From Rhodospirillales bacterium (GTDB taxonomy: Bacteria > Pseudomonadota > Alphaproteobacteria > JAJFIK01), in NCBI GenBank assembly GCA_021775005.1, contig JAJFIK010000075.1, forward strand, positions 11,086 through 75,085: a DNA stretch of 64,000 nt, read 5' to 3'. Position 1 is the first letter of the stretch. Each line of letters begins with the position of its first letter. A program made the position numbers and the translations under genes. Below the pieces are notes generated by a model. The model made no database searches and was not told where the DNA came from. It saw only the letters and a list, made by a program, of their open reading frames with translations. Positions 9,162 to 54,021 of this stretch are shown here, one piece after another.

Positions 9162-10073
9162 GTGGTTGTCGCTACCGTTGCCATTGGTGCCTGGTTCTTT
9201 CTGGGGCAACTGAACGGCGCTGGCGTGACGTCTGCGGCGGCTTGCGGCGATACGCCAGCAAACACGTTTGTCTTTGTGCCCGGCGGCGGCTTCCAGATGG
9301 GGTCCAATGACTACTATCCGGACGAAGCCCCGATCCGCGATGTGGTGATGGAGGGGTTTTGGATTCGCCGCACCGAAATCACCAATGCTGAGTTCCGCGC
9401 CTTTGTTGCCGCGACCGGCTACGTCACTGTTGCCGAGCGCGCGCCCCCCGAAGGGGTTGCGCCAGGATCGGCAGTCTTCGTTCCGGCCCAGCGCGGCGAG
9501 CCCATTCGGCCGATGAGTTGGTGGCATTGGGTGCCCGGTGCCGATTGGCGCCATCCCGAGGGGCCGGGCAGTTCAATCGACGGCAGGGACGGCTATCCCG
9601 TCACGCAAATTGCCTATGAAGATGCGCTCGCCTTTGCGGAATGGGCCGGTGAGACCCTGCCCAATGAAGCGCAATGGGAATATGCCGCCAGTGCGGGCGG
9701 CACGGTGTCCGACAGTCCCTATCGCATAGAAGACGGCGCGCCCCACCCCATCGCCAACACATGGCAAGGTTTGTTCCCGGTCCTCAACACCGGCGAGGAT
9801 GGGTTTTTGGGCACCTCTCCCGCTGGATGTTTTGAGGCCAATGCTTTTGAGCTGCATGACATGATCGGCAATGTGTGGGAGTGGACGGCAACGCCTGCGA
9901 CCGGCACTGCGCGCGGCGTCATCAAAGGCGGATCGTATCTCTGCGCACCAAATTACTGCATGCGCTATCGCCCTGCCGCCCGCGAAGCGCAAGAAACCGG
10001 CCTTGGCACGAACCACATCGGCTTCCGCACCATCCGCACTGCGCCGCCGCCGCAACCTGCACAGAGTCAATAA
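9162..10073 (+). CDS. formylglycine-generating enzyme (FGE/SUMF1 family)
   Basis: FGE-sulfatase domain motifs: RTEITNAEFRAFV, YPVTQIAYEDALAFAEWAG, HDMIGNVWEWT and GGSYLC. It lies 20 nt downstream of the sulfatase. Confidence 0.85.
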   Translation: MVVATVAIGAWFFLGQLNGAGVTSAAACGDTPANTFVFVPGGGFQMGSNDYYPDEAPIRDVVMEGFWIRRTEITNAEFRAFVAATGYVTVAERAPPEGVAPGSAVFVPAQRGEPIRPMSWWHWVPGADWRHPEGPGSSIDGRDGYPVTQIAYEDALAFAEWAGETLPNEAQWEYAASAGGTVSDSPYRIEDGAPHPIANTWQGLFPVLNTGEDGFLGTSPAGCFEANAFELHDMIGNVWEWTATPATGTARGVIKGGSYLCAPNYCMRYRPAAREAQETGLGTNHIGFRTIRTAPPPQPAQSQ

Positions 10074-10208
10074 TGACCAGTTCCGATCGCCTTGAGTTTC
10101 TGGGGGCGATACCAAGGCTGCCTATTTGAGGTAAATAAGATGATCGATCAGGATCGTGCGGCCGCCATTTAGTCGTATCACCGTGACTCGCAACTGTGAA
10201 AGATCGCC

Positions 10209-10763
10209 ATGCGTCATGCGCTTGTTCATCATCCCAGGACCCCTTGCCCCAGCGTTGGGGCGCTTGAGGTAGCGGTCGCCCGGGGGCCTGGGTGTGACCT
10301 CAAGCTGGGGTTTTTTCTCAGCGGACAGATCTCAAATCTCCGCCTTCCGCCCGCCGGGGCGATTGCGCGGGAGGATGGACTGTGGCAGCACACTTGTTTT
10401 GAAGTCTTCGTCTGCAACCCCACAACAGGGGCTTATGTTGAGTTCAACTTTGCGCCGTCGCGGCAATGGGCTGGCTATCACTTTAGTGGGTATCGGCAAG
10501 ACATGCGCCCTCTGAGCGAAATCCCCGCGCCGCAGCTGGAGATCAAGACAGGCGACAAAGGGCTCCAGCTTCACGCCGCGCTGTCACTTGAAGGTTTGGC
10601 GGAATTCGAGCAACCAACCCCGTGGCACCTCGGTCTTTCGGCTGTGATCGAAGACACTCAGGGGCGCGTGTCATATTGGGCGCTCACCCACCCGCCAGGC
10701 CGTGCGGATTTTCATTGTGCCGATTGCTTTGCTCTCGAACTTGGCGCAGAAATGAAATCATGA
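10209..10763 (+). CDS. hypothetical protein, possibly CBM9/DOMON-like
   Basis: 184 aa. The pattern CFEVFV...YVEFNFAPS resembles the family-9 carbohydrate-binding-like fold. This is a weak call from memory only. Confidence 0.4.
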   Translation: MRHALVHHPRTPCPSVGALEVAVARGPGCDLKLGFFLSGQISNLRLPPAGAIAREDGLWQHTCFEVFVCNPTTGAYVEFNFAPSRQWAGYHFSGYRQDMRPLSEIPAPQLEIKTGDKGLQLHAALSLEGLAEFEQPTPWHLGLSAVIEDTQGRVSYWALTHPPGRADFHCADCFALELGAEMKS

Positions 10764-11962
10764 AATTTGGTATCGATAGACTTCTCCATGAGCCGGGATT
10801 GCGCGGGCCCCTCATTGGCAAGCGCTTGGCGCTGCTTGCCCATCCGGCCTCTGTCACTGAGGACCTGACCCATTCGCTTGATGCCCTGGCCGCTTGTGAT
10901 GACTTAAAGCTCAGCGCTGCGTTTGGGCCCCAGCATGGCTTGCGCGGCGACAAGCAAGACAACATGGTCGAATCGCCTGACTTCAACGATTTGGCGCACA
11001 ACATCCCTGTCTTCAGTCTTTACGGCGAGGTGCGGCGACCAACAGATGAAATGATGGAGGGTTTTGACGTTCTTCTTGTCGACCTGCAGGATTTGGGCTG
11101 CCGCATATACACATTTGTCACCACACTTCTTTATGTGCTCGAAGCTGCGGCGCGGCACAACAAAGCGGTCTGGGTTCTTGATCGTCCCAATCCCGTTGGT
11201 CGCCCCATCGAGGGCCTGACGCTTGAAGCGGGATGGGAGAGTTTTGTTGGTGCGGGACCCATGCCCATGCGCCACGGCCTTACGCTTGGGGAAATGGGCG
11301 CGTGGTTCATCAAGACATTTGGGCTCGACGTGGACTATCGCGTGATCGAGATGGAAGGGTGGCAGCCGGAAACCGGGCCGGGCTTTGGCTGGCCGCTGGG
11401 CCAGCGCCCGTGGATTAACCCAAGCCCCAATGCCCCGAATCTCTCAATGGCGCGCGCTTATGGGGGAACGGTGATGCTGGAAGGCACGGAGCTTTCTGAG
11501 GGTCGCGGCACAACGCGGCCGCTTGAGCTTTTCGGCGCCCCCGACATTGATGCCCGCCGCGTGATTGCGAAAATGCGCAAGCTGGCCCCGAACTGGCTTG
11601 CGGGCGCAACCTTGCGAGACTGTTGGTTCGAACCAACATTCCATAAACATGCAGGCCAGCTTTGCAACGGTGTCCAGATTCATGTGGAAGGTCCCAGCTA
11701 TGACCATACCGCATTTAAGCCCTGGCGCCTTCAAGCGCTGGCCTTCAAGGCCATTCGGTCGCTCTACCCGGACTACCCCCTGTGGCGCGACTTTGCCTAT
11801 GAATACGAGCACGGCAAGCCCGCCATCGACGTGATCAACGGGGGCCCGCGCTTGCGCACATGGGTCGACGATGGTGCTGCTACGCCAAGTGATCTTGATG
11901 AACTGGCGGGCGCGGACGAAGCGGCTTGGAAAAGCGAGCGCCAAGAGTTTTTGATGTACTGA
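10760..11962 (+). CDS. DUF1343 family protein (NamZ-like putative exo-glycosidase)
   Basis: N-terminal MKFGIDRLL...GKRLALLAHPASV, with length and composition typical of DUF1343. ATGA overlap with the upstream ORF. Confidence 0.6.
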   Translation: MKFGIDRLLHEPGLRGPLIGKRLALLAHPASVTEDLTHSLDALAACDDLKLSAAFGPQHGLRGDKQDNMVESPDFNDLAHNIPVFSLYGEVRRPTDEMMEGFDVLLVDLQDLGCRIYTFVTTLLYVLEAAARHNKAVWVLDRPNPVGRPIEGLTLEAGWESFVGAGPMPMRHGLTLGEMGAWFIKTFGLDVDYRVIEMEGWQPETGPGFGWPLGQRPWINPSPNAPNLSMARAYGGTVMLEGTELSEGRGTTRPLELFGAPDIDARRVIAKMRKLAPNWLAGATLRDCWFEPTFHKHAGQLCNGVQIHVEGPSYDHTAFKPWRLQALAFKAIRSLYPDYPLWRDFAYEYEHGKPAIDVINGGPRLRTWVDDGAATPSDLDELAGADEAAWKSERQEFLMY

Positions 11963-13387: not shown

Positions 13388-14917
13388 TCAGTCCATTACA
13401 ATGCCATGCTCAAGCGCGAGCAACGCCAATGCGGGACGAGCATTTACGCCGGTTTTCCTATAGATTTTCTGGATGTGATGGTCGGCGGTTTTGGGCGAGA
13501 TGTTCAATACTTCTGCAATTTGCGCTGTCGATTCAGACATCGCCAGCCGGGCTAATACTTGAACCTCACGCCGCGTCAGATCAAATGGATAGGCCGCCAT
13601 GACGTCCTTGACCTTGTGGCCAGCCGCTTGCAAGACGGCAGTCACGGCGGCAGGTAGGAATTTTTTATCGACCGCAGCAGCCGTCATCCGTTTTGCGGCT
13701 TCTTTGGGATCCAGCGCCTTGCTTGCGGGAGTGGAATTTGTCAGCTCATCATATTCGTTTGCGACGGCCAGAATGTTGCAGGCCAAGTCCGGTAATGCCA
13801 CGCGGCGATGATAGCCACTGCCGTCCGCACGTTCCTGCACGCAAGATGCAATTCGTGACCAAGCGGCAAATGGCTCACCATGAGACAGTACATACTCTGT
13901 TTGGAACGAGTGTCTTTGCATCTCAATTCGCTCTGATACGCTGAGCTCAGCGGCCTTGTACCAAATGCGGTTCGAAATCGCACATTTTCCAATGTCATGA
14001 ACTAACGCGGCGAGCCGCAAAGTCTCCACCTGATCGTTAGGAAGTCCTGCCAATTTCGCCGCCGAAGCAGTTAGGCTCGCAACCCGGCGCGAATGGCTGC
14101 GGAAGTGGCTCGCCTTGTGGTCGGTCATATCCGCACCGACCTCAGCCAGAGTCTGCCGGCAGGTTGGCGTCATTTTGATCGGCTCGCCGGGCTCGGCGGC
14201 AATAAATGACTCGAACTCTGGCGTCCTGCTTGCGGTCGCAAAAATGTCGTCAGCATGGTCCAAAAATGCCTGCCCAAGTTCGGGGTCCAACTCCACACCC
14301 CGTTTCGCCGCTACCACTTTTTTTGCTTGCTCGGCGTCTTCCAGGCGCCTGACCAACTCGGCCATCTCAGTGATCCGCACCAGGCGCGACAGAGATGGTA
14401 CGTCGGGACCGCCAAAGGGCAGTACTTTGCCGTCCCACCTGGCATAGTAATAGGGGATGCACTCAAGCACCGCCTCGGAGACTGGTAGCCGCCGGGCCAG
14501 TAAATAGGACTGCCGGCAATGGGCCGCTGTAAAATCGGGCGCAGCGCCCGGCAGGATATCGCAAATGTGGTTGAATGCTTTGTCCCTGTCTTCGGTCGTG
14601 GCATCTTGCGCGATGTACTGGCTCAAGAACTTTTTCAAATCCTCGCGGTCGGTCCAGTCGCCTAGCATGGTGGCCACAGCGAAGCCCTGATCATCGCCAA
14701 TCGATAGCAGCCCAGTTTCGTGACTGGTGATCGTGCAGCCAATAAACCTGACGGTGGCCAGAAAATATGCATCCTTTTGGGTTTGGAGATCCAAGCCTAG
14801 CTTCTTAGCAAACTCCGCAGTTACGATGGCTGCGGTTAGACCGGAACCACTGGGCCGGCCTGTGGCCATGTCAGCGGCCAAGGCCAACACGCCCAAGCCT
14901 TCAGAAATAGTCGGCAT
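13388..14917 (-). CDS. LuxR-family transcriptional regulator with two tandem degenerate HD-GYP-like domains
   Basis: The second domain has LAALVHDIGK (HD motif) and ERADGSGYHRR (HHExxDGxGYP with GYP changed to GYH). The first domain is degenerate (LALAADMATGRP; YYARWDGKVLPFGG). The C-terminal LuxR HTH reads REVQVLARLAMSESTAQIAEVLNISPKTADHHIQKIYRK. Confidence 0.7.
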   Translation of the reverse strand: MPTISEGLGVLALAADMATGRPSGSGLTAAIVTAEFAKKLGLDLQTQKDAYFLATVRFIGCTITSHETGLLSIGDDQGFAVATMLGDWTDREDLKKFLSQYIAQDATTEDRDKAFNHICDILPGAAPDFTAAHCRQSYLLARRLPVSEAVLECIPYYYARWDGKVLPFGGPDVPSLSRLVRITEMAELVRRLEDAEQAKKVVAAKRGVELDPELGQAFLDHADDIFATASRTPEFESFIAAEPGEPIKMTPTCRQTLAEVGADMTDHKASHFRSHSRRVASLTASAAKLAGLPNDQVETLRLAALVHDIGKCAISNRIWYKAAELSVSERIEMQRHSFQTEYVLSHGEPFAAWSRIASCVQERADGSGYHRRVALPDLACNILAVANEYDELTNSTPASKALDPKEAAKRMTAAAVDKKFLPAAVTAVLQAAGHKVKDVMAAYPFDLTRREVQVLARLAMSESTAQIAEVLNISPKTADHHIQKIYRKTGVNARPALALLALEHGIVMD

Positions 14918-15155: not shown

Positions 15156-17783
15156 GTGGATGTCATAGGCGACAAACTGATTTCATTGCCTGAAGGCGCG
15201 AGCGATACCGTCCCCACCAAGTATTGGGAGCGGCTGGATGATGGGCGCGTGATGTGCACCCTGTGCCCGCGCGCATGCAAAATGAAAGACGGCCAGCGCG
15301 GCCTGTGCTTTGTCCGCAAGGCGCAAGGCGGCGAAGTTGTCATGACCAGCTATGGCCGCTCATCTGGATTTTGCATCGACCCGATTGAGAAAAAGCCCCT
15401 CAACCACTTTCTGCCCGGCACGCCGGTGCTTTCCCTTGGCACCGCGGGGTGTAACCTTGCCTGCAGCTTCTGCCAAAACTGGGATATTTCCAAAGCACGG
15501 CAGATGGACCGGGTGCAGGACCTCGCCCAACCGGAAATGATTGCAAAGGCCGCCAAGGAAACCGGCTGTCGCTCAGTTGCGTTTACCTATAACGACCCGG
15601 TTATTTTCATGGAGTACGCGATTGATATCGCACAGGCCTGCCGGGAATTGGACATCAAAACGGTAGCAGTGACCGCTGGATACATGAACGATGCGCCCCG
15701 GGCTGAGTTCTTTAAGTATATGGATGCGGCGAATGTCGATCTGAAAGCCTTTACCGAGGATTTCTATTGGCGCCAAACCAAGGGCGCGCTCAAACCCGTT
15801 CTGGATACGCTCACATACCTCAAGGAGCACACCAATGTCTGGTTCGAGGTCACCACCCTTTTGATCCCGGATGAAAATGATAGCTCGAAGGAATTACGCG
15901 CACAGTGCGAATGGATGATGAAAAATCTGGGGCCCGACGTGCCGCTGCATTTTTCAGCCTTTCATCCCGATTATCGCATGCGAGATAAATCCCGCACGCC
16001 GCCCGAAACGCTTAAACGCGCCCGCGGCATCGCCCGGGAAATCGGGTTGCGCCACGTCTATACGGGCAATATCCACGATGAAGAAGGCGGCACCACCTAT
16101 TGCCACAGTTGCGCTGAGACGCTCATCGTGCGGGATTGGCATCTCATTAAACACTGGGCGTTAAGCGATGACGGCAAATGCAAAAAATGTGACACGGCCC
16201 TGGCAGGGGTGTTTGATGGCCCGCCGGGCAAGTGGGGCCGCAAGCGTACGCCCATCCGCATCGGGCCCGCTGGCGCAATGGTGGCTCAACCTGTCAGTCC
16301 GCGCACCATGGCCGCAAAGAATGCCACAAAGGAAGAGCTCAGCCGCAGCTATCAACCGATGAAGAATACCAACTACAGTATCAAGCAGCCGCAGGTGGCC
16401 GGAAAGTTCTATCCATCAGACGCGGGGACTCTGGCCAATACTGTTGACCAGCTATTGCAGTCTGCGCCGTCTCCGCAAATGCAGCCCAAGGCCATTATCG
16501 CGCCCCATGCCGGATACCAGTATTCCGGCAAGATCGCCGCGCGGGCCTTTAACAGTCTAGGCAACCGAAAGTCCGACATTCGCCGCGTGGTTTTGTTCGG
16601 CCCGCCCCACCGCAAAGCTGTGAAGGGCATTGCAGTGCCCAGCTACCAGATCTTTGCCACACCGCTTGGCCCCGTCAGCGTCGACCGCGGCGCGATTGAG
16701 AAACTCAAAGTTCTCCCATTTGTCGCCGAGGACGATAGCCCGTTCGAAAATGAACACGGGCTGGAAGTGCATCTGCCATTCCTGCAGCGCGTATTTGAAA
16801 ATGTCGAAATCGTCCCCGCCCTTGTGGGCGGAATTTCGCCGGGGCAAGCTGCCCAGGCCCTGCGCACGGTTTGGGGCGGTGATGAAACGCTGATCCTGAT
16901 CTCATCGGACCTCAGTCACTTTCACGACTACGACAAAGCCTCGAAAACGGACAATGCGGCGGCGGCGGCGATTGAAACATTACGCTCCGGCCAGTTGGGC
17001 GAAGACCAGGCCTGCGGTCGCCACGCCGTACGCGGGCTTCTGCTCGAATCCATCCATCACAATCTGCGCGCCACCACTATCGATTTGTGCAATTCAGGCG
17101 ACACTGCAGGCAACAAGGATCGCGTGGTCGGCTATGGCGCGTTTGTGTTTGAGCCTTCTGACAAGGCCCGCCTCCCGGAGGCTTCGGCCAAGGTCCTGCT
17201 GGATGTTGCCAGGCGTGTGGTCATCAAGGGCGCTGAGATCGGCGAGATGCCGAAACTCAATGTCCGCGACATGCCGCGATTGTTAATGGCATGGCGGCCA
17301 ACTTTTACCACCATCACAAATGGCGGCAAACTGCGCGGATGCTACGGCAGCTTTGTCGCGACCCAACCCTTGATCAATGACGTGGCCAAAAGTGCATACG
17401 CGGCCGCGTTTAAGGACTCCCGTTTCAAACCGATGACAATGGCGGAGCTGGCGCGGGCGGAACTGGGCCTGTCGATCCTTTCGGTCGCCTACCGCTTCCC
17501 GGTCAAGGACGAGGATGATTTGCTTGGCCAAGTGCGCCCAGGGATAGACGGACTGATTATGCGCGATGGGGGGCAACAGGGCCTGTTCTTGCCGTCGGTC
17601 TGGGAGCAGTTGAAGACCCCCGAGGCCTTTATCAAAGGCCTTAAACGTAAAGCGGGGCGGCCTGAGAATTACTGGTCAGACTCGCTGGAAATCTATCGCT
17701 TCACGGCAGAGAAAATCAGCGCTGTTCCGATTGTAACAGAGGCATTGGCACCTGCCGCTACTGTCCCTTCGGCGACAAAGTAG
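15156..17783 (+). CDS. AmmeMemoRadiSam system tri-domain fusion: radical SAM enzyme + MEMO1-like (protein B) + AMMECR1 domain
   Basis: The N-terminal part has CX3CX2C (GCNLACSFCQNW) plus an upstream Cys cluster CTLCPRACK. The middle part has the MEMO1 signature IIAPHAGYQYSG, beginning around 16359. The C-terminal part has the AMMECR1 signature GGKLRGCYGSF. The 875-aa ORF has no internal stops. Confidence 0.8.
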   Translation: MDVIGDKLISLPEGASDTVPTKYWERLDDGRVMCTLCPRACKMKDGQRGLCFVRKAQGGEVVMTSYGRSSGFCIDPIEKKPLNHFLPGTPVLSLGTAGCNLACSFCQNWDISKARQMDRVQDLAQPEMIAKAAKETGCRSVAFTYNDPVIFMEYAIDIAQACRELDIKTVAVTAGYMNDAPRAEFFKYMDAANVDLKAFTEDFYWRQTKGALKPVLDTLTYLKEHTNVWFEVTTLLIPDENDSSKELRAQCEWMMKNLGPDVPLHFSAFHPDYRMRDKSRTPPETLKRARGIAREIGLRHVYTGNIHDEEGGTTYCHSCAETLIVRDWHLIKHWALSDDGKCKKCDTALAGVFDGPPGKWGRKRTPIRIGPAGAMVAQPVSPRTMAAKNATKEELSRSYQPMKNTNYSIKQPQVAGKFYPSDAGTLANTVDQLLQSAPSPQMQPKAIIAPHAGYQYSGKIAARAFNSLGNRKSDIRRVVLFGPPHRKAVKGIAVPSYQIFATPLGPVSVDRGAIEKLKVLPFVAEDDSPFENEHGLEVHLPFLQRVFENVEIVPALVGGISPGQAAQALRTVWGGDETLILISSDLSHFHDYDKASKTDNAAAAAIETLRSGQLGEDQACGRHAVRGLLLESIHHNLRATTIDLCNSGDTAGNKDRVVGYGAFVFEPSDKARLPEASAKVLLDVARRVVIKGAEIGEMPKLNVRDMPRLLMAWRPTFTTITNGGKLRGCYGSFVATQPLINDVAKSAYAAAFKDSRFKPMTMAELARAELGLSILSVAYRFPVKDEDDLLGQVRPGIDGLIMRDGGQQGLFLPSVWEQLKTPEAFIKGLKRKAGRPENYWSDSLEIYRFTAEKISAVPIVTEALAPAATVPSATK

Positions 17784-19728: not shown

Positions 19729-20403
19729 ATGGATGACTACGTTGCCCGAGCGAGGGACAAGTTCCGCAGGGAACAAGTCTCACCTCATTATTCCGGGCGC
19801 CTGCACTTTGCCCTCACCTTGATCGTAACCCTTGCCGTGATTTCAGCCTCTCTGTGGTTCCTGAAAAGCCCCACATGGCTGGAATGGCTGACCGTGCCGA
19901 TCACCTTCGCCTATGCGAACCTGTCGGAATATTTTGGTCATCGCGGGCCCATGCACCACCCAACAAAGGGGCTGGGCCTGATCTACCGCCGCCACACGAT
20001 CGAACACCATTCGTTCTTTACCGACACTGAAGATACGATCGAAACGCCCGACGATTTTAAGGCCGTGATGTTCCCGCCCATCATGCTGCTCTTTTTCTTT
20101 GGCGCTTTCGCAACACCTGTGGCCGTCCTGATCTACTTCGTCTTGGGGCAGAATGTTGCGCTACTATTCGTTTTCACGTCGACAAGCTATTTTCTCATCT
20201 ACGAGCTTCTGCACCTTTGTTATCATCTGGACAAGACCTCATGGCCCGCCCGGCTGCCCTTTCTGAGCAAACTGCGCCATCATCACACGGTTCATCACAA
20301 CCGAGACCTCATGGCGGATTACAATTTCAATATTACGTTCCCGATCTGCGATGCAATCTTTGGAACGACCTACAGCCCCGATACAGCAGGCGATGAGAGC
20401 TGA
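19729..20403 (+). CDS. fatty acid hydroxylase / sterol desaturase superfamily membrane protein
   Basis: Histidine boxes HRGPMHH, HTIEHH and HHHTVHH. AAGGAG lies 6 nt upstream of ATG 19729; the ORF extends to 19693. Confidence 0.7.
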   Translation: MDDYVARARDKFRREQVSPHYSGRLHFALTLIVTLAVISASLWFLKSPTWLEWLTVPITFAYANLSEYFGHRGPMHHPTKGLGLIYRRHTIEHHSFFTDTEDTIETPDDFKAVMFPPIMLLFFFGAFATPVAVLIYFVLGQNVALLFVFTSTSYFLIYELLHLCYHLDKTSWPARLPFLSKLRHHHTVHHNRDLMADYNFNITFPICDAIFGTTYSPDTAGDES

Positions 20404-20478
20404 TCGATTTTCGATCACCAATTGGGCATCGCGCGCCTTGAGGCAGCCAAGAGAATCGGAGTTGGCTTATGGGATAGT

Positions 20479-20561
20479 GAAGCGCTACCCAAAGCTGGAC
20501 CAGTTGGCGGTAGATTCTCCACACTGTTGAAGTGCTCCCCGAATTTGGACCACCCGGCTGG
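20479..20561. repeat. short intergenic repeat, two diverged ~33-nt units (copy 1)
   Basis: The units are GAAGCGCTACCCAAAGCTGGACCAGTTGGCGG... and GAAGTGCTCCCCGAATTTGGACCACCCGGCTGG. The same units recur at 40810..40902 in the opposite orientation and order. Confidence 0.6.
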
Positions 20562-20895
20562 AGTATTTTCCGGGGTTATAGCTCAGGGCATTTGTGTGCC
20601 ATCGGAGCGGTTTATCAGTGATACCGGCGGTGCAGCCCAAGCCCTATGCAAGTCCAATCAGCTCCAAGCGGCGGCCATGGCGCAACCATAATGCTGACAA
20701 AGGGGCGGCAAACGGCAGCTTACCGCCTTTTTCCTGGAAAACATAACGCGCGTTAACGCGGCGCGCCCTCGGGCTGCAATTCTAATTAATCTTTATCATT
20801 TATCCTGACGGCAACCGATCAATTTGCGTGGCGAATATTTTTCACTGCAACAGAATTCACTGCAGGCGCCTGAAGCGCGCCCCAAGGAGGCGAAC

Positions 20896-23800
20896 GTGCA
20901 AACAGAACCGCGCGGTACACAAAAAAAGTATTTCAGCCCGCATCTACTGTCACTGCTTTCGAATCCACTCAGCGTTTTCTGCATATTATCGACCATTGGC
21001 ACGGTCGTTCTCCTTGCTGCGGTTTATTTTGTCGACACCGAACGCAAGCATGAGGCTGAACAGCTTGCGCGTCTTGCGCTATCAACTGTTTCCAACAGCT
21101 TCGCCGCAGAAATGGGCTCCTACTACGACGATATTATGATAATGTCGCGCACGGTTTCGACTTTGGACTTCATCAGAGAGCCGTCCGTTGAGTCGCGTCG
21201 ACATGCGGAACTTTCGCTCTTTGCTCTTGCCCAATCACACGTTGATTATATGCAACTTCGCTACATTGATGCGAGCGGACAAGAACAGATACGCGTCGAT
21301 AGAACTGGTGATAGGGTTGAAGTCGTTTCCGGTTCAGACCTTCAGAACAAGTCTAGCCGCGCGTATTTTCAGCACTCAGTCAATCTTGACCGCGGCGAAA
21401 TTTTTGTTTCCGAGTTGGATCTAAACGTTGAGCAAGGGGCCGTTCAGGTGCCCTGGCATCCTACGTTACGCATCGCAACTCCCATCTTTGCCGAAAGCGG
21501 CGAGCGTACCGGCGTCGTCGTTTTGAACATTTCAACTGCGGGCATTATTGGACAGATTCAGAACCCGCTGGTGAACCCGCATGTGCAAGTTTATCTCGCC
21601 AACGACCAAGGGTATTGGATCGGCGGGCGGGCGGACGAAGAGCTGTGGGGATTCATGTTTGGGCGGGAAGCCGTCGCGCAACAAGCCTTTGAGGGTGAAG
21701 TATGGCAGGCCGCACAAAACAGTCGCAGCGGCCTGGTGTGGCAAGGTGCCTCCCTGTTTTCCCATACCTGGCTTGACCCCGTTACACCCGAAACAAACAC
21801 GCCAGATGCGGTTGAAATTTTACCGGTTGAACGTTGGTTGCGGATCGCAAAGTTTCCCAACGTGGGACAATCGATTCTCGTCACGCCGGTGGTTTGGGGT
21901 ATCTGGCTGGTCATGCTTTTCGCCTTCGCCCTGACAAGCTGGAAAGTCAAGGAGGTAAATGACCAGCGCCGTGAAGTTTTGCTGCGGGAGCGCTTCCTAC
22001 AAACACTGATCGACAGCGCACCCGACGCGGTGATCACCATTGATGAAGCCGGGAAAATCACATCTTTCAGCCGCGCGGCGGAAAATATGTTCGGCTATTC
22101 CGAGCAAGAAGTAATTGGGCAGCCGGTGTCAATGCTGATGCCCGATGCCCTGGCGCAAAATCATCAGTCCTATATTACCAAGTATCTCAGCGCCCCCAGC
22201 TTTGCGCCCTCGGCAACGCGCCAAGCGCGCGAACTCATCGCGCAGCAAAAAAGCGGCAAGCAGATGCCGATTGGCCTGAACCTCGGCGACCTTGGTAGCG
22301 GCCAGGTCGGCCGTTTTGTTGCTATTATCCGCGACATTACCGAGCAGAAACAAGCCGAAGCGGATCTGACCCTCCGGCAACGTGAAGCGGAGATTGCCAA
22401 CAAGGCCAAATCCGCATTTCTTGCCAATATGAGCCACGAATTGCGAACACCGCTTAATGCGATCATCGGTTACAGCGAGATGCTGCTTGAAGAGGCCGAG
22501 GACGAAGAACAGAACGCGTTCGCTCCCGATCTGCAGCGCATCCGGCGCGCCGGGCGGCACTTGCTGGCCCTGATCAACGACGTGCTTGATCTTTCCAAGA
22601 TCGAAGCCGGAAAACTGGAACTCACTCCGGTAGATTTCAATCTTTCCGCGCTGGTGGAAGAAATCGAGAGCACATCAAAGTTCCTCGCCGACAAAAACAA
22701 TAATGTCCTGAATATCCAACAAGACCTATGCGGCCTCGCCACAGTTCGCGCCGATGAAATGAAGGTACGGCAGATCCTGTTCAATCTGGTCAATAATGCC
22801 TGCAAGTTCACCGTTGATGGCGAAATTTCCGTGATGATCAGCGCTGATCCCGCCGCGTCCAGGCTGAATTTTTCCGTGTCCGACACGGGGATTGGCATGA
22901 GCGAAGATTACCTCAAGAAACTCTTCACCGAGTTCTCCCAGGAAGAAAACCACATGCGCAAACAATTCGAGGGGACGGGCCTCGGACTCGCGATCTGCAA
23001 GAAGTTCGTCGAAATGATGGGTGGTGAGATCGCGGTCCAATCCACGAAAGACAAAGGCACGACTTTCTCCATCTGGGTGCCGTTTGAAGAGGCATCCGAA
23101 AAAGGTTCCGGCGCTCGTTCCAAATTCACCGCTTACCCCGCTCATGCCCCGCTTTTGGAGGGGCGCGAAGAACTCTTTGACGGACTTACGGTGCTTGTGG
23201 TCGATGACGACCCGAACGCGCGCGATCTTGTGACGCGCTATCTCATGCGCGAGGGGCTTCAGGTGGCGACCGCGTCCAGCGGCCGCGAAGGCCTGGCAAT
23301 GGCTGAAAAACTCCAACCCGATGCCATCGTTCTTGATCTAATGATGGATGATATGACGGGCTTTGAGGTTCTTGGGCGGCTCAAAAGCTCTTCCGATCTA
23401 AACGCCATTCCCGTTGTCATTTGTTCAATCATGGATGAGAAGGAACATGGCATTGCACTTGGCGCCGTGGATTATATGACCAAGCCCTTCGATGGGGATC
23501 AATTGATGATCACGCTCGAAAGGCACCTATTACCTGATTCAAACGCATCGATTCTGATCATCGAGGATGATAGGGATGCGCGGGATATTATGTCCCGCCA
23601 AGTGGCAAGCCTGGGGTTTGACGTCGTTGCCGCAGAGAACGGGGTCGTCGCCTTTGAACGGCTGCAGAACATGGACATCCCCGCGCTTATTCTTCTTGAT
23701 CTGATGATGCCGGAAATGAACGGATTTTCATTCCTGAATAATTTGCGAGACATTCCCGCGTATGACGACGTTCCCGTCATCGTCGTTTCCGCAAAGGAAT

Positions 23801-23955
23801 TGAGCGAGGAGGAGCGGCAACAACTCGTCTTGGATACCGAGCAAATCATCGAGAAGGGATCGGGCGACTTGAACGACTCGCTACGCAAGCTCCGCGGGTA
23901 TCTCTTCAAGAGTCTCAAAAACACAGGAAAAAAATCCAGGAAGGACGCAGCATGA
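20896..23955 (+). CDS. hybrid sensor histidine kinase (periplasmic Cache-like sensor, PAS, HisKA/HATPase, two C-terminal REC domains)
   Basis: Two TM segments flank a periplasmic domain of about 280 aa. PAS and the H-box MSHELRTPLN are followed by HATPase G-boxes and two receivers. AAGGAGG lies 5 nt upstream of GTG 20896; the ORF extends to 20824. Confidence 0.8.
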   Translation: MQTEPRGTQKKYFSPHLLSLLSNPLSVFCILSTIGTVVLLAAVYFVDTERKHEAEQLARLALSTVSNSFAAEMGSYYDDIMIMSRTVSTLDFIREPSVESRRHAELSLFALAQSHVDYMQLRYIDASGQEQIRVDRTGDRVEVVSGSDLQNKSSRAYFQHSVNLDRGEIFVSELDLNVEQGAVQVPWHPTLRIATPIFAESGERTGVVVLNISTAGIIGQIQNPLVNPHVQVYLANDQGYWIGGRADEELWGFMFGREAVAQQAFEGEVWQAAQNSRSGLVWQGASLFSHTWLDPVTPETNTPDAVEILPVERWLRIAKFPNVGQSILVTPVVWGIWLVMLFAFALTSWKVKEVNDQRREVLLRERFLQTLIDSAPDAVITIDEAGKITSFSRAAENMFGYSEQEVIGQPVSMLMPDALAQNHQSYITKYLSAPSFAPSATRQARELIAQQKSGKQMPIGLNLGDLGSGQVGRFVAIIRDITEQKQAEADLTLRQREAEIANKAKSAFLANMSHELRTPLNAIIGYSEMLLEEAEDEEQNAFAPDLQRIRRAGRHLLALINDVLDLSKIEAGKLELTPVDFNLSALVEEIESTSKFLADKNNNVLNIQQDLCGLATVRADEMKVRQILFNLVNNACKFTVDGEISVMISADPAASRLNFSVSDTGIGMSEDYLKKLFTEFSQEENHMRKQFEGTGLGLAICKKFVEMMGGEIAVQSTKDKGTTFSIWVPFEEASEKGSGARSKFTAYPAHAPLLEGREELFDGLTVLVVDDDPNARDLVTRYLMREGLQVATASSGREGLAMAEKLQPDAIVLDLMMDDMTGFEVLGRLKSSSDLNAIPVVICSIMDEKEHGIALGAVDYMTKPFDGDQLMITLERHLLPDSNASILIIEDDRDARDIMSRQVASLGFDVVAAENGVVAFERLQNMDIPALILLDLMMPEMNGFSFLNNLRDIPAYDDVPVIVVSAKELSEEERQQLVLDTEQIIEKGSGDLNDSLRKLRGYLFKSLKNTGKKSRKDAA

Positions 23956-24341
23956 GCACCCTGTTGATCGTCGAAGACAATGAAATGAACCGGGATATGC
24001 TGACGCGGCGACTTGCGCGGCGCGGGTACGGGATTGCTCATGCGGAAAACGGGCAGGAAGCAGTTGACTACGTGAAGGGCCAATCTGTGGATTTAATTCT
24101 GATGGATGTCAGCCTGCCGGTCCTTGATGGCCTGCAGGCCACGCGGCTGATCAAGGCTGACCCTGGAACGAGCGGCATTCCCATCATTGTCATAACTGCA
24201 AATGCGACAACAGAGGATCGGACAAAGGCGTTCGAAGCCGGTTGCGACGACTACCAAACCAAGCCCGTGGATTTAGACGAGTTACTGGCAAAGTTATCAA
24301 AATACTTGCCGAGCGAACCGGGCAAGGCAGCAAATGCCTGA
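23952..24341 (+). CDS. single-domain response regulator (CheY-like receiver)
   Basis: LLIVEDNEMNRDML...DLILMDVSLPVLDG...TKP. ATGA overlap with the upstream kinase. Confidence 0.85.
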   Translation: MSTLLIVEDNEMNRDMLTRRLARRGYGIAHAENGQEAVDYVKGQSVDLILMDVSLPVLDGLQATRLIKADPGTSGIPIIVITANATTEDRTKAFEAGCDDYQTKPVDLDELLAKLSKYLPSEPGKAANA

Positions 24342-26784
24342 GGCGCTGCCCAACATACTGGTCGTTGATGATAACCCCGACAACCGCGATTTAATCTCTC
24401 GGCGCCTGCTCCGGTACGGCTACACCGTCCAAACCGTTGACGATGGGTGGGCCGCGCTTGAGGCCATAAAAAGCGGTCGATTTGACGCCGTTTTGCTGGA
24501 CGTCATGATGCCAGGTATCGATGGATTTGAAGTTCTGCGCCGCATTCGGACCACCACATCGAAGACTGACTTGCCGGTTATCATCGTCACCGCAAAGCAC
24601 GACAGTGACAGTGTCGTCACCGCCCTTGAAACGGGCGCAAACGATTACACCTCCAAGCCAATCAACTTTAAGATCCTGCGCGCGCGGCTTGAAAATCAGG
24701 TCGCCTTAAAGCGCGCCGAGGACGGGCTGAAAGCGCTAAACGAATCCTTGGAAATCACTGTTCTCAAGCGGACCACAGATCTTGTGGAGACGAACGAGAA
24801 GCTTACCGAAGTGATCCAGGAACGGACACGCGCGGCGGACGAGCTGGAGAAAAAGGAGCGACAGCTTCAGGGGTTGATCGATTGCGTGCCGGACGGTGTT
24901 ATTACCATCACCGAGGACCGCCTTATTTCAGGGTTCAGCCCGGCCGCTCAAAAAATGTTTGGCTACAACGAACAAGAGATTCTGGGTCAGCCGGTTACCG
25001 CGTTGATCGCGCCGGATGACTGCGAGGGATATGCCCAACACCTTGAACACTTTCTTTCCAAACCCCAAACGGCGCAACCCATCACCATAGCGCCGTACGA
25101 CCTGCTGGCCATGAAATCCGACGGCCGCACTCTTCCCATCGACATCAGTCTGGGTGATCTGGGCTCCGGCCGGGACAGCCGCCTTGTTTTAGTTGTCCGC
25201 GACATCACAGAACGTAAGCGCTCGGAAGCGGAACTGCGCGAGGCGCACCAGCGGACCCGGCTCCTACTTGCCTCCGTCGCCGATGGCGTTGTCGGCCTGG
25301 ATGAAGAGGGCGAAACCACCTTCATGAACAGCGCAGCGCTGGATATTCTGAAACTCAAGGTAGACGCATCCGTCGGAAAACCTTTTCGCAATTTCATTAA
25401 GCCGACCAACATCGATCATGACTCCCACGGTGATGCCGGGGCATTGATCGAAGACGCATTCCGGAGCGGTGGGCGCAGCTCCCGTCAGCGCGCCCAGTTC
25501 CTCGATTCAGGAGGCACACCCATCGACGTTGAATTCGTTGCGGCGCCCCTCAACCAAGGTAATGCTCTGGTCGGTGCCGTGATTGCCTTCAACGACGTGA
25601 CCACCCAATTGAAAACTGAGGCGCAGCTTCGCCAGGCCGTAAAGATGGAAGCGATCGGACGACTCACGGGGGGCGTTGCCCATGATTTCAACAATGTGCT
25701 GACGATCATTATTGGTAATCTTCAGCTTCTCGAACGGCGCCTGTCATCGGACGAGAACTCGCTTTCGCGCATCGAAAGAATTCTGGCCGCTGCCAACAGC
25801 GCCGGCGATCTGACTAAACGGTTGCTCGGCCTTTCGCGGCAAGAGGTTATTGAGACGAAAGCAGTGGACGTCAATGAAATTGTTACGAGAATGACGGCGC
25901 TTCTTGAACGTAGTCTCGGCCCCAACATCAAGATAGAGACGGCGCTCGCGGCCGATCTCGTTCCGGCCTTGACCGACCCAAGCGAGTTCGAAAACGCCCT
26001 TCTCAATCTCTGCGTCAACGCGCGCGACGCCATGCCGGATGGTGGTACGCTGATTATTGAGACCAAATTGAACGACCACATGGTTTCCTCCCATGAATCC
26101 GGCGATATACCGAGCGGGCAATTCATCGAGCTTGCTGTAACGGACAACGGCTGCGGCATGGACGCCGAAACGAGGGAAATGATCTTCGAGCCCTTCTTCA
26201 CCACCAAGGCACCTGGCAAGGGAACGGGCCTTGGCCTGGCCTCTACCTTCGGTTTTGTGAAGCAGTCAGGCGGTCATATGACGGTCTATAGTGAACTCGG
26301 CCAAGGCACCACCTTCCGGCTCTACTTCCCGCTCGCTGATAAGAACGCTCCTGTTGAAACCGGAAGCCTTACCCCCGTAGAGACACAATCCTCTGAGGGT
26401 TTGACCGTGCTCGTGGTCGATGATGAGCCTGGCGTGCGCGAGTTCGCCGTGGCTGCACTCCAAGAGATGGGTTGCATCACGCTGGAAGCCGCCAACGCAG
26501 AAGCTGCGCTTGAAATCTTCGCCAAACGGCCGGGCATCGATGTCGTCCTCAGTGACATCATCATGCCCGGCAGCATGGATGGCGTCGCGCTGGCACATCA
26601 TCTCCGCGCCCAGCGGAAAGATCTCGGCATCATGCTGGTATCCGGCTTCACCGAACACCGCATCAAGAACAATAACGACCTGCCGGAAGGGTGCGTCTTC
26701 CTGCCCAAGCCCTATCGCTTTGAGGATATTGCAAAGCATCTGCCGCAAGTGTCCGGAGGCGTTGCACGCGCCACCGCGCGTTGA
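24334..26784 (+). CDS. hybrid histidine kinase (REC, 2x PAS, HisKA with AHDFNN H-box, HATPase, C-terminal REC)
   Basis: N-terminal receiver, then an H-box [14 protein letters not shown] of CckA/LuxQ type, G-boxes and a C-terminal receiver. An 8-nt overlap with the upstream RR. Confidence 0.8.
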
Positions 26785-27031
26785 CGCGGGCACCGCCCTT
26801 CAAAAAAATCCAATAAGTCTTAATGCGGCTTAACCTTGACCACTTCGGTGCGCCTCGCGCACCGGAAATTATCGGCATCGGGTCGCGCCTTTCGCGACGG
26901 ACTTTAAGACCAACTTAATGGGGCACAGTTAAACTTGTAATAATTGGGACACATGGGGTGCCTTATTGACCCCAGCAGAGATTTCGCTCTTCGCTACAAT
27001 CCGAGTGCCATTTAGCGACTGACGAAATGAA

Positions 27032-28264
27032 TTGGTGGAGTTTTTTGTGGGAAACACATCGCCTTCAGCTCGTGCACTCATCTTGGATGATGAGTTCGAG
27101 ATTCGGGAGCTCCTGAATGAAGTGGTTTCTGAGGTCGGGTACGACGTGGTCGAAACCGATAGTGCGGAAGTGTTTTTTTCCCAGATCGAAGAGTTCGATC
27201 CCACCATCGTTTTCGTCGACCTGATGATGCCGGACATCGACGGTGTAGAGATTCTGCGGCAGCTCGGTGAGCGGCGCGTCAAATGCGGCATCGTCATCAT
27301 GAGCGGCGCGCATTCCAAAATCCTCTCGACCGCCAGTGACCTTGGCAAGAAGCATGGGCTTCAGATCAAGAAGTGCCTCAGCAAACCGATTGACGTGAAC
27401 AGCCTGCAAAACGATCTGCTGCAGTGGCGCGGATCGGAACTCACCCCGACAATACAAGAGATACGGTCAGGCCTGGCAAAAGGCGAATTCGAACTGCACT
27501 TGCAGCCCAAGATTCAGGTCAAACGCGCCTTTGGCTTTCCCATCGACTCCGCCGAAGGGCTGATACGTTGGCACCACCCCGCGCAGGGGACGCTTCTGCC
27601 CGCCAAATTCCTCGGCTTGATGGAGGAAAGCGGCCTGATGGGCGAGCTCACGGATTATGTGCTGAAACAGGCCATCGGAATCGCTAAAGCGCTAAAGGAA
27701 GTCAATTCCGATATTTCCCTCGCCGTCAATATTCCCGCAGAGTCGTTCGAGGAGAGCGGCTTTGTCGACAACCTGACGACCGATGTTGTCGCAGCTGGCC
27801 TTCAACCTCAGGCGTTCACGCTGGAGGTAACGGAGCGGGCACGGGTTTCGGAGAACGCGGATACGCTTGAGAATCTGACAAGGTTTCGCCTCAAAGGCTT
27901 CGGCCTTTCCATGGATGACTTTGGTACGGGATTTTCGTCCCTTGTCGATCTTCACCGCCTTCCCTTCAACGAGCTGAAGATGGATCGCGCCTTCATCGCG
28001 TTGATCGATGAAAGCAAAGAGTCCCGGGCCATCGTGAGTGCCCTCACCGGCCTTGCCAGGACTCTGGGGCTTTCTGTCTGTGCCGAGGGGGTCGAGACCT
28101 ATGGAACGCTCGAGTTTCTCGAAAATATTGATTGCCATTCCGCACAGGGGTTCTTCATATCAAAAGCGCTTCCCTTTGAAGATTTTCTCGCCTTCAAGAG
28201 ACATTGGGAAAGCCGCTGGGCTAATACCGACTTCCAACCAAATGAAATCGAAGCCACGCAATAG
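27032..28264 (+). CDS. response regulator with EAL domain (putative c-di-GMP phosphodiesterase)
   Basis: REC domain ALILDDEFEIRELL...VFVDLMMPDIDG, then EAL-type motifs ELHLQPKIQ and DDFGTGFSSL. The ORF begins with TTG at 27032. GTG at 27035 or 27050 is also a possible start. Confidence 0.75.
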   Translation: MVEFFVGNTSPSARALILDDEFEIRELLNEVVSEVGYDVVETDSAEVFFSQIEEFDPTIVFVDLMMPDIDGVEILRQLGERRVKCGIVIMSGAHSKILSTASDLGKKHGLQIKKCLSKPIDVNSLQNDLLQWRGSELTPTIQEIRSGLAKGEFELHLQPKIQVKRAFGFPIDSAEGLIRWHHPAQGTLLPAKFLGLMEESGLMGELTDYVLKQAIGIAKALKEVNSDISLAVNIPAESFEESGFVDNLTTDVVAAGLQPQAFTLEVTERARVSENADTLENLTRFRLKGFGLSMDDFGTGFSSLVDLHRLPFNELKMDRAFIALIDESKESRAIVSALTGLARTLGLSVCAEGVETYGTLEFLENIDCHSAQGFFISKALPFEDFLAFKRHWESRWANTDFQPNEIEATQ

Positions 28265-28393
28265 ATGTGCCGGCGGTAGCGGCAGTCAGAAACAAGTGAA
28301 CCTCTTAGATCCTTTGAGGCAGAAAATCTTGACGTCCTATGGGGCGGATAGTGTTTGGTAAGGGCAGGGATTACCGAAGCCTCGAAACGAGCT

Positions 28394-29095
28394 TTAGTAT
28401 TTAGTTGGATATGTCTCATCAAACGCATAGCCGGCGGAGCGCACAGTACGGATGGGATCTTTCTCGCCCGGCTCATTAAGTGCCTTGCGCAAGCGGCCCA
28501 CATGAACATCAACGGTTCGGTCTTCGACATAGATGTCTGAGCCCCAAGCTGCGTCAAGTAGTTGTTCCCGCGTAAAAACACGCCCCGGATGACCAAGGAA
28601 GTGTTCGAGCAAGCGATATTCGGTTGGGCCGAGACGAATGTTGCGCGCACCCCGCCGCACCCGATGACAGGAGCGGTCGAGTTCGATATCGCCAAAGGTA
28701 ATCAAATCCTCAGCGGCAGCCGGTCGCACGCGGCGCATGATGGCGCGGATGCGCGCCAAAAATTCCGGCATCGAAAACGGCTTGGTGATATAGTCATCCG
28801 CACCAATGTCCAGCCCCCGCACACGGTCCGCTTCTTCACTACGCGCCGTCAGCATGATGATGGGAAGGTTGGCGGTCTCAGTTCGTTGCCGCAGGCGGCG
28901 GCAAATTTCCAGACCCGAGAACTGCGGCAGCATCCAGTCCAGGACGGCGAGGTTCAGCTCTTCTTCTTCCGCCAGCAGCATGGCTTCCTCACCACCACCG
29001 GCTTGCAAGACGCGGTAGCCCTCGCTTTCCAGATTGTAGACAAGCAGCGTCATCAAATCCGTATCGTCTTCAACCACAAGCACATTGGGTTTCAT
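28394..29095 (-). CDS. phoB: phosphate regulon response regulator PhoB (OmpR family)
   Basis: REC plus winged-helix domain, positioned after phoU in the pst operon. Confidence 0.85.
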   Translation of the reverse strand: MKPNVLVVEDDTDLMTLLVYNLESEGYRVLQAGGGEEAMLLAEEEELNLAVLDWMLPQFSGLEICRRLRQRTETANLPIIMLTARSEEADRVRGLDIGADDYITKPFSMPEFLARIRAIMRRVRPAAAEDLITFGDIELDRSCHRVRRGARNIRLGPTEYRLLEHFLGHPGRVFTREQLLDAAWGSDIYVEDRTVDVHVGRLRKALNEPGEKDPIRTVRSAGYAFDETYPTKY

Positions 29096-37904: not shown

Positions 37905-38303
37905 TCAGCGGCAGGCAGCGGTTCCATAAGGTGCTGTCAGACTAAAGTGAACGGGTCTCCAAAATCTAAAGTAATCTCGAGACAATGCGCCAAGTTGACG
38001 CCATTCAGCCAAGGCTGTCGCGCGAGCTGATTTGAATGCTATTCGATGATTCAGATGGCGGTCATGATTGCAATGATTGTGTACGGACGAATGGATAGAG
38101 ATAAATTTCTGAAGCGACTTGCCGCTTCGAAACTTTGCCATCGCTCGCTCTCGTCGGCGGAAGGGCTGGTGCGCATTCTCCGCCCTGTTGTTATACCACC
38201 GTCCTGTTTCCTGGGCTTTCTCGTTACCGATAATCTTCAAGGCAGCGCGGTATGATCTAAACAGGCCGATCGCAATCGTTTTTGGTTGGCCGTACCGTTT
38301 CAT
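37905..38303 (-). pseudogene. IS6-family transposase C-terminal fragment (remnant)
   Basis: RSYRAALKIIGN...WYNNRAENAHQPFRRRERAMAKFRS...FISIHSSVHNH matches the IS6 (IS26-like) C-terminal pattern NNxxExxHxxxxRR...FKS. The N-terminal ~125 aa are missing. GC is locally lower. Confidence 0.6.
37930..37960. repeat. 31-bp repeat GGTGCTGTCAGACTAAAGTGAACGGGTCTCC (copy A)
   Basis: 32/35 identity to copy B at 40090..40120 in the same orientation. It sits at the 3' end of the IS6 fragment and begins GGTGCTGT, reminiscent of the IS6 IR GGCACTGTT. Confidence 0.55.
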
Positions 38304-42692: not shown

Positions 42693-42708
42693 AGGTATCT
42701 CTATTCCT

Positions 42709-53942: not shown

Positions 53943-54021
53943 GATGGGCCTCCCTTGGTTGCTCACCATGGAGCGCCCTGAGCGGCGCAGGTTCAACTTA
54001 ACTCTGTGTCATGAACAAGAT

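Follow-up and report, generated by a model that had tools for sequence, protein, structure and literature searches.

How could two hybrid histidine kinases carrying several receiver (REC) domains, with no histidine phosphotransfer (Hpt) domain encoded beside them, pass a signal to an enzyme of cyclic di-GMP (c-di-GMP) turnover? The question is raised by a four-gene cluster at 20896-28264 of a 64,000-nucleotide stretch of DNA from a Rhodospirillales bacterium (GenBank assembly GCA_021775005.1, contig JAJFIK010000075.1, positions 11,086 to 75,085 of the forward strand), which we call the window and to which all unlabelled coordinates refer. The cluster encodes, in this order, a membrane hybrid kinase (HK1), a single-domain response regulator (RR), a soluble hybrid kinase (HK2) and a response regulator that joins a receiver to an EAL domain (REC-EAL). 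We propose, with confidence that falls slightly short of even, that the locus is a two-kinase, receiver-gated chain running from HK1 to the N-terminal receiver of HK2 (N-REC), on to HK2 itself and finally to REC-EAL, and that this chain would set the activity of a phosphodiesterase. Our search of the literature found no paper describing this four-gene cluster, and it is uncharacterised; it falls among known multi-kinase signalling chains and is no new kind of system. The genes and their domains, assigned with Pfam, are the following.

20896-23955, forward strand, HK1, membrane hybrid histidine kinase, 1019 aa
about 21139-21771, forward strand, periplasmic dCache-like sensor of HK1 (HK_sensor_dom_bact, PF21623, 92 bits)
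21988-22368, forward strand, FixL-like PAS domain of HK1, residues 365-491 (Pfam, and match to 1dp6)
22405-22611, forward strand, HisKA of HK1, H-box SHELRTPLN
22753-23088, forward strand, HATPase_c of HK1
23176-23541, forward strand, first receiver of HK1 (REC1), Response_reg
23530-23910, forward strand, second receiver of HK1 (REC2), Response_reg
23952-24341, forward strand, RR, single-domain response regulator, 129 aa, Response_reg only
24334-26784, forward strand, HK2, soluble hybrid kinase, 816 aa, REC-PAS-PAS-HisKA-HATPase-REC
24355-24690, forward strand, N-REC of HK2, Response_reg
24856-25236, forward strand, first PAS domain of HK2 (PAS1), FixL-like, without haem residues
25267-25620, forward strand, second PAS domain of HK2 (PAS2)
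25657-25845, forward strand, CckA-like HisKA of HK2, 33 bits against a cutoff of 26.9, H-box GGVAHDFNN
25975-26337, forward strand, HATPase_c of HK2
26389-26763, forward strand, C-terminal receiver of HK2 (C-REC), Response_reg
27047-28264, forward strand, REC-EAL response regulator, RocR/PvrR-like, 405 aa
27077-27412, forward strand, receiver of REC-EAL (EAL-REC), Response_reg
27455-28165, forward strand, EAL domain (Pfam EAL, 200 bits)

An initial annotation, made from the letters of the window alone, had proposed these four architectures, and Pfam agrees with it for every gene, including the HisKA domain of HK2, which scores above its cutoff. HK1 starts at GTG 20896 behind an AAGGAGG Shine-Dalgarno sequence and is built as a first transmembrane segment, the dCache-like domain, a second transmembrane segment, PAS, HisKA, HATPase_c, REC1 and REC2, so that its periplasmic domain lies between two hydrophobic segments; from this start it is 1019 aa long against 1020 aa in an orthologue. 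HK2 has no transmembrane segment. The N, G1, F and G2 boxes, as read from the translations, are intact in HK1, and HK2 likewise has the complete set of these ATP-binding boxes. Both start/stop overlaps that had been noted are real, one being an ATGA shared by the HK1 stop and the RR start (23952-23955) and the other an overlap of 8 bp between RR and HK2 (24334-24341). For the EAL gene the likelier start is GTG 27047, which is preceded by GGTGGAG and gives the length of the orthologue, 405 aa.

In regards to the question of whether these genes belong together, we looked for relatives of the cluster. In a species-representative genome collection close relatives were lacking, the top match reaching 33% identity along its full length. 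A large protein database gave an identical copy and further relatives with identities of 66%, 44% and about 39%, the nearest named relatives being Kordiimonas pumila (L086) and Paremcibacter congregatus (L087), both Alphaproteobacteria. The order HK1-REC-HK2-REC/EAL, which we term type A, recurs in four further lineages of Alphaproteobacteria (L081-83, L084-85, L086 and L087), in which the orthologous proteins are 33-72% identical to those of the window and the flanking genes are unrelated. Since the order is kept in four lineages with different flanking genes, the comparison supports the four genes as a functional unit. The junction between HK2 and the EAL gene varies among these lineages.

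L081-83, 148-bp gap between HK2 and the EAL gene
L084-85, EAL gene overlapping HK2
L086 (Kordiimonas pumila), 3-bp gap
L087 (Paremcibacter congregatus), EAL gene overlapping HK2

In L084, the 44%-identity relative, the cluster runs on at 9221-11105 with a fifth and a sixth gene, the one encoding a lone receiver of 133 aa that falls together with the classes of C-REC and EAL-REC, the other a 492-aa protein without a Pfam match.

The front of the cluster is less constant than its end. In L088 (a metagenome-assembled genome of Bauldia) and in L089, the HK2 homologue begins with two receivers, the REC-EAL gene follows it with an overlap, and the pair stands at the 3′ end of a complete CheW-CheR-CheW-MCP-CheA/REC-CheB cluster (MCP, methyl-accepting chemotaxis protein), which replaces HK1 and RR. 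Because the upstream module differs in this way, HK1 plus RR in some loci and a Che pathway in others, the invariant unit looks like HK2 plus REC-EAL, a portable output cassette whose front module would be exchangeable. The two chemosensory loci (2422-13953 in L088 and 2368-13953 in L089) are clusters of the alternative cellular function (ACF) type, and their apparent output is the REC-REC-PAS-PAS-HK-REC protein and then REC-EAL. In more distant loci a plain kinase takes the front position: in L090 the gene of a plain HisKA-HATPase kinase runs into the 5′ end of one for REC-PAS-HK-REC, the order in L010 (Geobacteraceae) is HAMP-HK / REC / REC-HK-REC / REC-HD-GYP, and in L002 (Armatimonadota) it is PAS-HK / REC / REC-PAS-PAS-HK-REC. 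The N-REC of HK2 is canonical and its gene adjoins that of the upstream kinase, an arrangement that is kept in all relatives examined. The suggestion in the initial annotation that this receiver takes its input from an upstream kinase thus gains comparative support, both from the replacement of HK1 and RR by a Che pathway in two loci and from the plain kinases found upstream of REC-HK-REC proteins.

The same comparison bears on the idea that the operon simply holds two independent pairs, HK1 with RR and HK2 with REC-EAL, with no phosphotransfer across them and with the gap in front of the EAL gene marking a separate transcription unit. That gap, 262 bp with a strong hairpin and with a weak promoter-like match (26781-26809) before the EAL gene, speaks for such an arrangement, and the pairing of adjacent kinases and regulators is the default rule. 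However, HK2 always carries an N-terminal receiver, which needs a donor, and the class of this receiver changes as the upstream module goes from HK1 plus RR to Che. In addition, in four of the five other lineages the EAL gene overlaps HK2 or lies right against it, and the hairpins have no U-tract, are not conserved and are accompanied by promoter-like matches at a chance-level count only. We consider two unconnected pairs very improbable.

In the two-kinase chain that we favour, HK1 would be the input kinase, sensing through its dCache-like domain and possibly through a haem-binding, gas-sensing PAS, and would autophosphorylate at its HisKA histidine, from which the phosphoryl group would pass directly to N-REC. 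The lone RR would probably also be phosphorylated by HK1 and compete as a sink or buffer, and REC1 and REC2 of HK1 would act as intramolecular sinks or regulators. Phosphorylation of N-REC would flip HK2 between kinase and phosphatase states, its HisKA histidine would then phosphorylate or dephosphorylate both EAL-REC and its own C-REC (an internal competitor), and the phosphorylation state of REC-EAL would tune c-di-GMP hydrolysis. We infer all of these phosphotransfer steps, together with their direction and sign.

A precedent is the Che3 system of Rhodospirillum centenum (CheA3-REC, CheS3 with the architecture REC-PAS-HK, and CheY3), in which CheA3 phosphorylates REC1 of CheS3 and thereby turns the CheS3 kinase off, the REC of CheA3 being a phosphate sink (PMC3868531). 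As we propose here, a hybrid kinase with a sink receiver stands upstream, and a second, soluble PAS kinase with an N-terminal receiver, the parallel to HK2, controls a downstream receiver protein. Homologues of HK2 and REC-EAL likewise end Che clusters (L088 and L089), and REC-HK proteins are frequent as outputs of ACF chemosensory clusters (PMC3447774). However, the upstream kinase of Che3 is a CheA, whereas that of the window is a membrane HisKA hybrid with two receivers, and the last target is a lone CheY there and an enzyme (EAL) here. Compared with CheS3, HK2 also has an extra receiver at its C-terminus and a core of the CckA type, the likeness between the two being drawn from their architecture.

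The initial annotation had counted six receivers and judged them unusually many for one locus; the count holds, but multi-kinase clusters often have many receivers at one locus. All six keep the equivalents of D13, D57 and K109 of CheY, position 12 being acidic (D or E) and position 87 S or T. RR has the canonical ED/D/T/K active-site residues, and the DD, D, S and K of EAL-REC align with D12/D13, D57, T87 and K109 of CheY. In a neighbour-joining tree of 43 receivers from seven loci (200 bootstraps), each of the six receiver classes is monophyletic with 197-200/200 bootstraps, and C-REC, EAL-REC and the extra lone receiver of L084 cluster together with 177/200. The alpha1 segment of a receiver carries partner specificity, and here the signature DNxxNRD(L/M)LxRRL is common to RR and N-REC, C-REC and EAL-REC having DExxV/I.E in alpha1 plus SG at the T87 position. 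This pattern fits an arrangement in which one kinase, HK1, would dock RR and N-REC and the other, HK2, would dock C-REC and EAL-REC. Some points from the same analysis weigh against the chain: RR is sister to N-REC with a low support of 97/200 (49%), the N-receivers of a second type (type B) group with the CheB receiver at a weak 69/200, and the relatedness of receivers is an indirect guide to partner choice.

The lone RR, a possible sink, shuttle or allosteric partner, could also be given a more central part. The solved structures nearest to it are PleD REC1 and DivK; a FixT-like Fe-S receiver was considered and rejected, RR having a single Cys. In a shuttle of the Spo0F/MrrA type, phosphate would pass from HK1 to RR, from RR to the HisKA histidine of HK2, which would play the role of a phosphotransferase besides or in place of that of a kinase, and from there to REC-EAL, the receivers of HK2 being regulators or sinks. 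All five type-A loci conserve RR, with translational coupling to both kinases, the neighbourhood encodes no Hpt, and the dimerisation and histidine phosphotransfer (DHp) fold of kinases is related to the ChpT/Spo0B fold. A precedent in Alphaproteobacteria is MrrA, which carries phosphate from kinases on to PhyK and LovK, these two serving as HPt proteins (PMC5964349). In MrrA/PhyK/LovK as in the Spo0F-Spo0B pair of Bacillus, a single receiver lies between two HK-type proteins and there is no classical Hpt, as here, but the second protein is in nature or behaviour a pure phosphotransferase, whereas HK2 has ATP-binding motifs and receivers. The complete ATP-binding boxes make HK2 look like a true kinase, the alpha1 segment of RR resembles that of N-REC and not that of the C-REC/EAL-REC class expected on the DHp of HK2, and the cassette persists without the lone RR in the Che-linked and L090 variants. 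We think a shuttle of this kind unlikely.

The remaining alternative is a canonical His-Asp-His-Asp relay that runs through an Hpt or ChpT-like protein encoded elsewhere in the genome, either from the HK1 histidine by way of an HK1 receiver and the Hpt to N-REC or RR, or from the HK2 histidine by way of C-REC and the Hpt to REC-EAL, or both. No Hpt had been visible to the initial annotation, and our screens agree with it: PF01627 is absent from all four cluster proteins at E<=0.01, and no Hpt was found in the 56 open reading frames (ORFs) screened over the 64-kb window (the four of the cluster plus 52 further ones), although a ChpT-like protein would escape these screens. Searching all six frames of the window with an Hpt-motif regular expression gave no match, and around the type-A relatives (L081-L087) PF01627 genes are absent up to a distance of 10 kb.

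The kinases themselves speak for such a relay. Both are hybrids with C-terminal receivers (two in HK1, one in HK2). The best NCBIfam models for HK1 are TorS, HrmK, BarA, LuxQ and ArcB, every one of them below cutoff; its closest named families, TorS, BarA, ArcB, LuxQ and RcsC, carry or use Hpt domains, and RocS1, the sensor for RocR, uses one as well. The HisKA-HATPase-REC core of HK2 is closest to CckA (5idj, E 4.6e-44), which passes phosphate via ChpT. The three best NCBIfam matches of HK2 include CckA models (373 bits for the Brucella model and 326 bits for the Caulobacter model), and both scores miss the CckA equivalog cutoff of 1000. HK2 has a core similar to that of CckA from Caulobacter and Brucella, with PAS domains ahead of it, but CckA is membrane-anchored, whereas HK2 is a soluble protein that begins with a receiver, and its gene neighbours that of REC-EAL; in contrast to the CckA-ChpT-CtrA/CpdR relay, no ChpT-like gene is among the four of the cluster. 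Against the receiver-gated chain it must be said that many relatives of the HK1 core family carry PF01627 and that CckA uses ChpT, which makes a His-Asp-His-Asp route through an orphan Hpt plausible, the visible DNA being 64 kb. Given the searches above, however, and the tight conservation of a self-contained cluster, which suggests that all partners are present, we hold the orphan-Hpt relay to be improbable.

A further reading keeps the cassette at its centre and would do without any Hpt. HK2, a CckA-like kinase gated by its own N-REC, and REC-EAL would form a portable converter of phosphorylation into a c-di-GMP output, in which the six receivers partition phosphate tunably by reversible exchange with the HK2 histidine. 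In the course of evolution this converter would have come to stand behind different inputs, here a haem-PAS/dCache hybrid kinase with a lone RR and elsewhere whole Che pathways. In detail, the DHp histidine would exchange phosphate among the RR/N-REC, C-REC and EAL-REC classes, and the breakdown of c-di-GMP would thereby be tied to O2 and to signals from the periplasm. We regard this as possible but doubtful.

Returning to the preferred chain, what could HK1 sense? Its PAS domain aligns along the whole haem domain of Bradyrhizobium FixL (BjFixL; 1dp6, E 1.1e-21), with the haem PAS of DosP ranking second among families after FixL, and the alignment shows that it keeps the equivalents of the proximal His200 and of the O2-binding Arg220 of the FixL O2 sensors. 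PAS1 of HK2 is a paralogue (46% identical, and also FixL-like) which has Tyr at both of these key positions, so that the haem His and Arg occur in the HK1 copy only. The HK1 PAS is thus a candidate haem-binding sensor, and since it is FixL-like with the proximal His, its signal may be O2 or some other gas. A parallel with DosP, a haem-PAS c-di-GMP enzyme, is that c-di-GMP hydrolysis is the predicted pathway output here too, but in DosP the sensor is fused to the enzyme, whereas here the link from sensor to EAL would be a multi-protein phosphorelay. Counting against a gas-sensing HK1, the propionate-binding Arg206 of BjFixL is replaced by Lys and His214 by Ser, and a FixL-like PAS in HK1 is confined to the window and the L081 lineage. 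The HK1 orthologues of L084, L086 and L087 carry an unrelated PAS, and a FixL-like PAS was found in every HK2 homologue, with the His present in some. Because the HK1 proteins of three other orthologous loci have an unrelated PAS and all HK2 homologues a FixL-like one, the domain was probably copied between HK2 and HK1 within the window/L081 lineage.

The kinase core of HK1 is similar to cores of the ShkA/HK853 type. A ShkA-like kinase with c-di-GMP-binding tandem receivers was considered and rejected: 6qrj aligns to the kinase core only, and REC1 and REC2 are both canonical and not pseudo-receivers.

At the other end of the chain, the earlier assignment of the output as a c-di-GMP phosphodiesterase agrees with a full set of EAL catalytic motifs, and the domain looks catalytically competent. 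The motifs, read from alignments to RocR and MucR, are QPK, E-G-L-x-R-W, N, EVTE, DDFGTG, ELKMD, AEGVE and QG; all are kept, and they are conserved across 7 orthologues. RocR (3sy8) matches REC-EAL end to end (E 1e-44), and the EAL domain of MucR (5m1t) matches its EAL domain (E 1e-49). The best NCBIfam model for REC-EAL is PvrR (NF052596), whose equivalog cutoff of 580 bits is missed with a score of 256.9; REC-EAL is a relative of PvrR, not an equivalog. The closest characterised four-gene analogue is the pvrS-pvrR-rcsC-rcsB operon, which has two serial sensors, PvrS acting ahead of RcsC (PMC3842833). In this PA14 system and in the Roc system of Pseudomonas aeruginosa (RocS1/RocR/RocA1), a homologous REC-EAL protein is encoded with hybrid sensor kinases, as here. 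The differences are that RocS1 and RcsC carry an Hpt, whereas the cluster proteins have none, that a DNA-binding regulator (RocA1 or RcsB) is included there, whereas the output of our cluster is REC-EAL, and that neither sensor has an N-terminal receiver, which HK2 has. One caution applies to the last step of the chain: control of the EAL domain by its receiver is not guaranteed, because the phospho-acceptor Asp of PvrR is dispensable under overexpression (PMC3842833).

The gap between HK2 and the EAL gene deserves separate treatment, as it could disconnect the output gene from the rest of the operon. The features of the gap, and of the region in front of the operon, are as follows.

26785-27046, forward strand, spacer between HK2 and the EAL gene, 262 bp, lineage-specific
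26847-26863, hairpin 1, GGTGCGC-CTC-GCGCACC, part of a 10-bp stem at 26844-26866, dG -17.1
26882-26898, hairpin 2, GTCGCG-CCTTT-CGCGAC, dG -9.2
26801-26819 and 27029-27047, inverted repeat of 19 nt, 79% complementary, weak
20692-20895, forward strand, 5′ intergenic region of the operon, with the Shine-Dalgarno AAGGAGG near its 3′ end

Both hairpins of the initial annotation exist, at coordinates 2-3 nt away from those first given, and the gap measures 262 bp and not 247. The proposal that they act as attenuators could not be upheld: no U-tract follows either of them, the next letters being GGAAATTA and GGACTTTA, a terminator scan found no site within 26785-27046, there is no Rfam match, and in an alignment the spacer and its hairpins have no homology to the 148-bp gap of L081, the 66%-identical relative. 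A perfect 7-bp stem occurs in about 7% of shuffled spacers, the fold of the whole spacer is no better than that of shuffles (z = -0.55), and promoter-like matches are at chance, 4 being found against 4.0 expected. The inverted repeat could pair the stretch directly behind the HK2 stop with its right arm, in which both the Shine-Dalgarno sequence and the GTG of the EAL gene lie. It may thus occlude the ribosome-binding site, a possibility to which we give little weight; the repeat is not conserved in L081. A riboswitch or other known RNA was searched for in the spacer and rejected, the Rfam scan of 20400-28500 having no spacer match at E<=1 and a single chance-level match inside HK2 on the opposite strand. 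An origin from a repetitive extragenic palindrome (REP) or a miniature inverted-repeat transposable element (MITE) was also rejected, with no second copy in the window and no convincing terminal repeats or duplications besides the weak 19-nt inverted repeat. Since four other lineages are without any spacer, it is a recent insertion, specific to this lineage. What speaks against the chain here is that the EAL gene, lying 262 bp away, could have its own promoter.

Upstream, a terminator-like hairpin (20704-20732, GGCGG...CCGCC with a long loop and then TTTTT), which the scan had missed, lies directly 3′ of an 89-aa ORF (20422-20691); it probably closes the upstream unit and isolates the operon from the genes before it, among them a fatty-acid hydroxylase gene and nnrS. 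No convincing sigma-70 match was found in 20692-20895. The operon had also been described as sitting immediately upstream of the Pho regulon. This is not the case, because the pho cluster phoR-pstSCAB-phoU-phoB, which runs from 36424 down to 28394 on the minus strand, converges on the EAL gene, phoB meeting it tail-to-tail. The pho genes, nnrS and the fatty-acid hydroxylase gene are absent from all related loci examined; because no neighbour recurs in any of them, the adjacency is coincidental, and a functional tie to NnrS upstream or to Pho downstream was rejected.

Elsewhere the window holds a second two-component operon related to c-di-GMP (40962-45463, minus strand), with the same logic of a kinase, a lone receiver and a receiver-enzyme.

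43145-45463, minus strand, CHASE-PAS-HK, H-box ASHDLQEPLR
42709-43230, minus strand, lone REC, scoring best against the RR and N-REC classes
40962-42692, minus strand, REC-GGDEF-EAL, GGDEF intact, EAL motifs degenerate-looking (LDNFGMG, ELEFSE, FQPV)

The enzyme of this operon is probably a cyclase. A third possible c-di-GMP-related gene (13388-14917, minus strand) encodes a 509-aa fusion of HD_5 (HD-GYP-type) with a LuxR/GerE DNA-binding domain. Radical SAM, Memo and AMMECR1 are usually separate, co-occurring proteins; at 15156-17783 they are joined in an 875-aa triple fusion. A 132-aa ORF (37905-38303, minus strand), located between a porin gene and an aidB-like gene, corresponds to the C-terminal part only of an IS240-type DDE transposase and is probably the remnant of an insertion sequence. 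Finally, the minus strand at 53010-55008 encodes a tandem pair of paralogues, both 328 aa long and both with retropepsin-like aspartyl protease domains.

Also, the Caulobacter HmrABCX system was considered as a possible homologue of the four-gene cluster and rejected, its architecture being different, with putative phosphotransferases and no EAL.

The cluster offers a compact and conserved model of how hybrid kinases may forward phosphate without an Hpt, and it bears on the role of surplus receivers as sinks, gates or shuttles. The occurrence of the same cassette behind a sensor kinase or behind a Che pathway points to a unit that pathway evolution can reuse. In L088 and L089 the cassette would give a Che pathway lowering c-di-GMP through a kinase in between, which runs counter to Wsp, and taken with the window it suggests that chemosensory and O2-responsive routes may lower c-di-GMP, in a direction opposite to that of Wsp-type systems. 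As the components are soluble proteins or separable domains, the model is directly testable.

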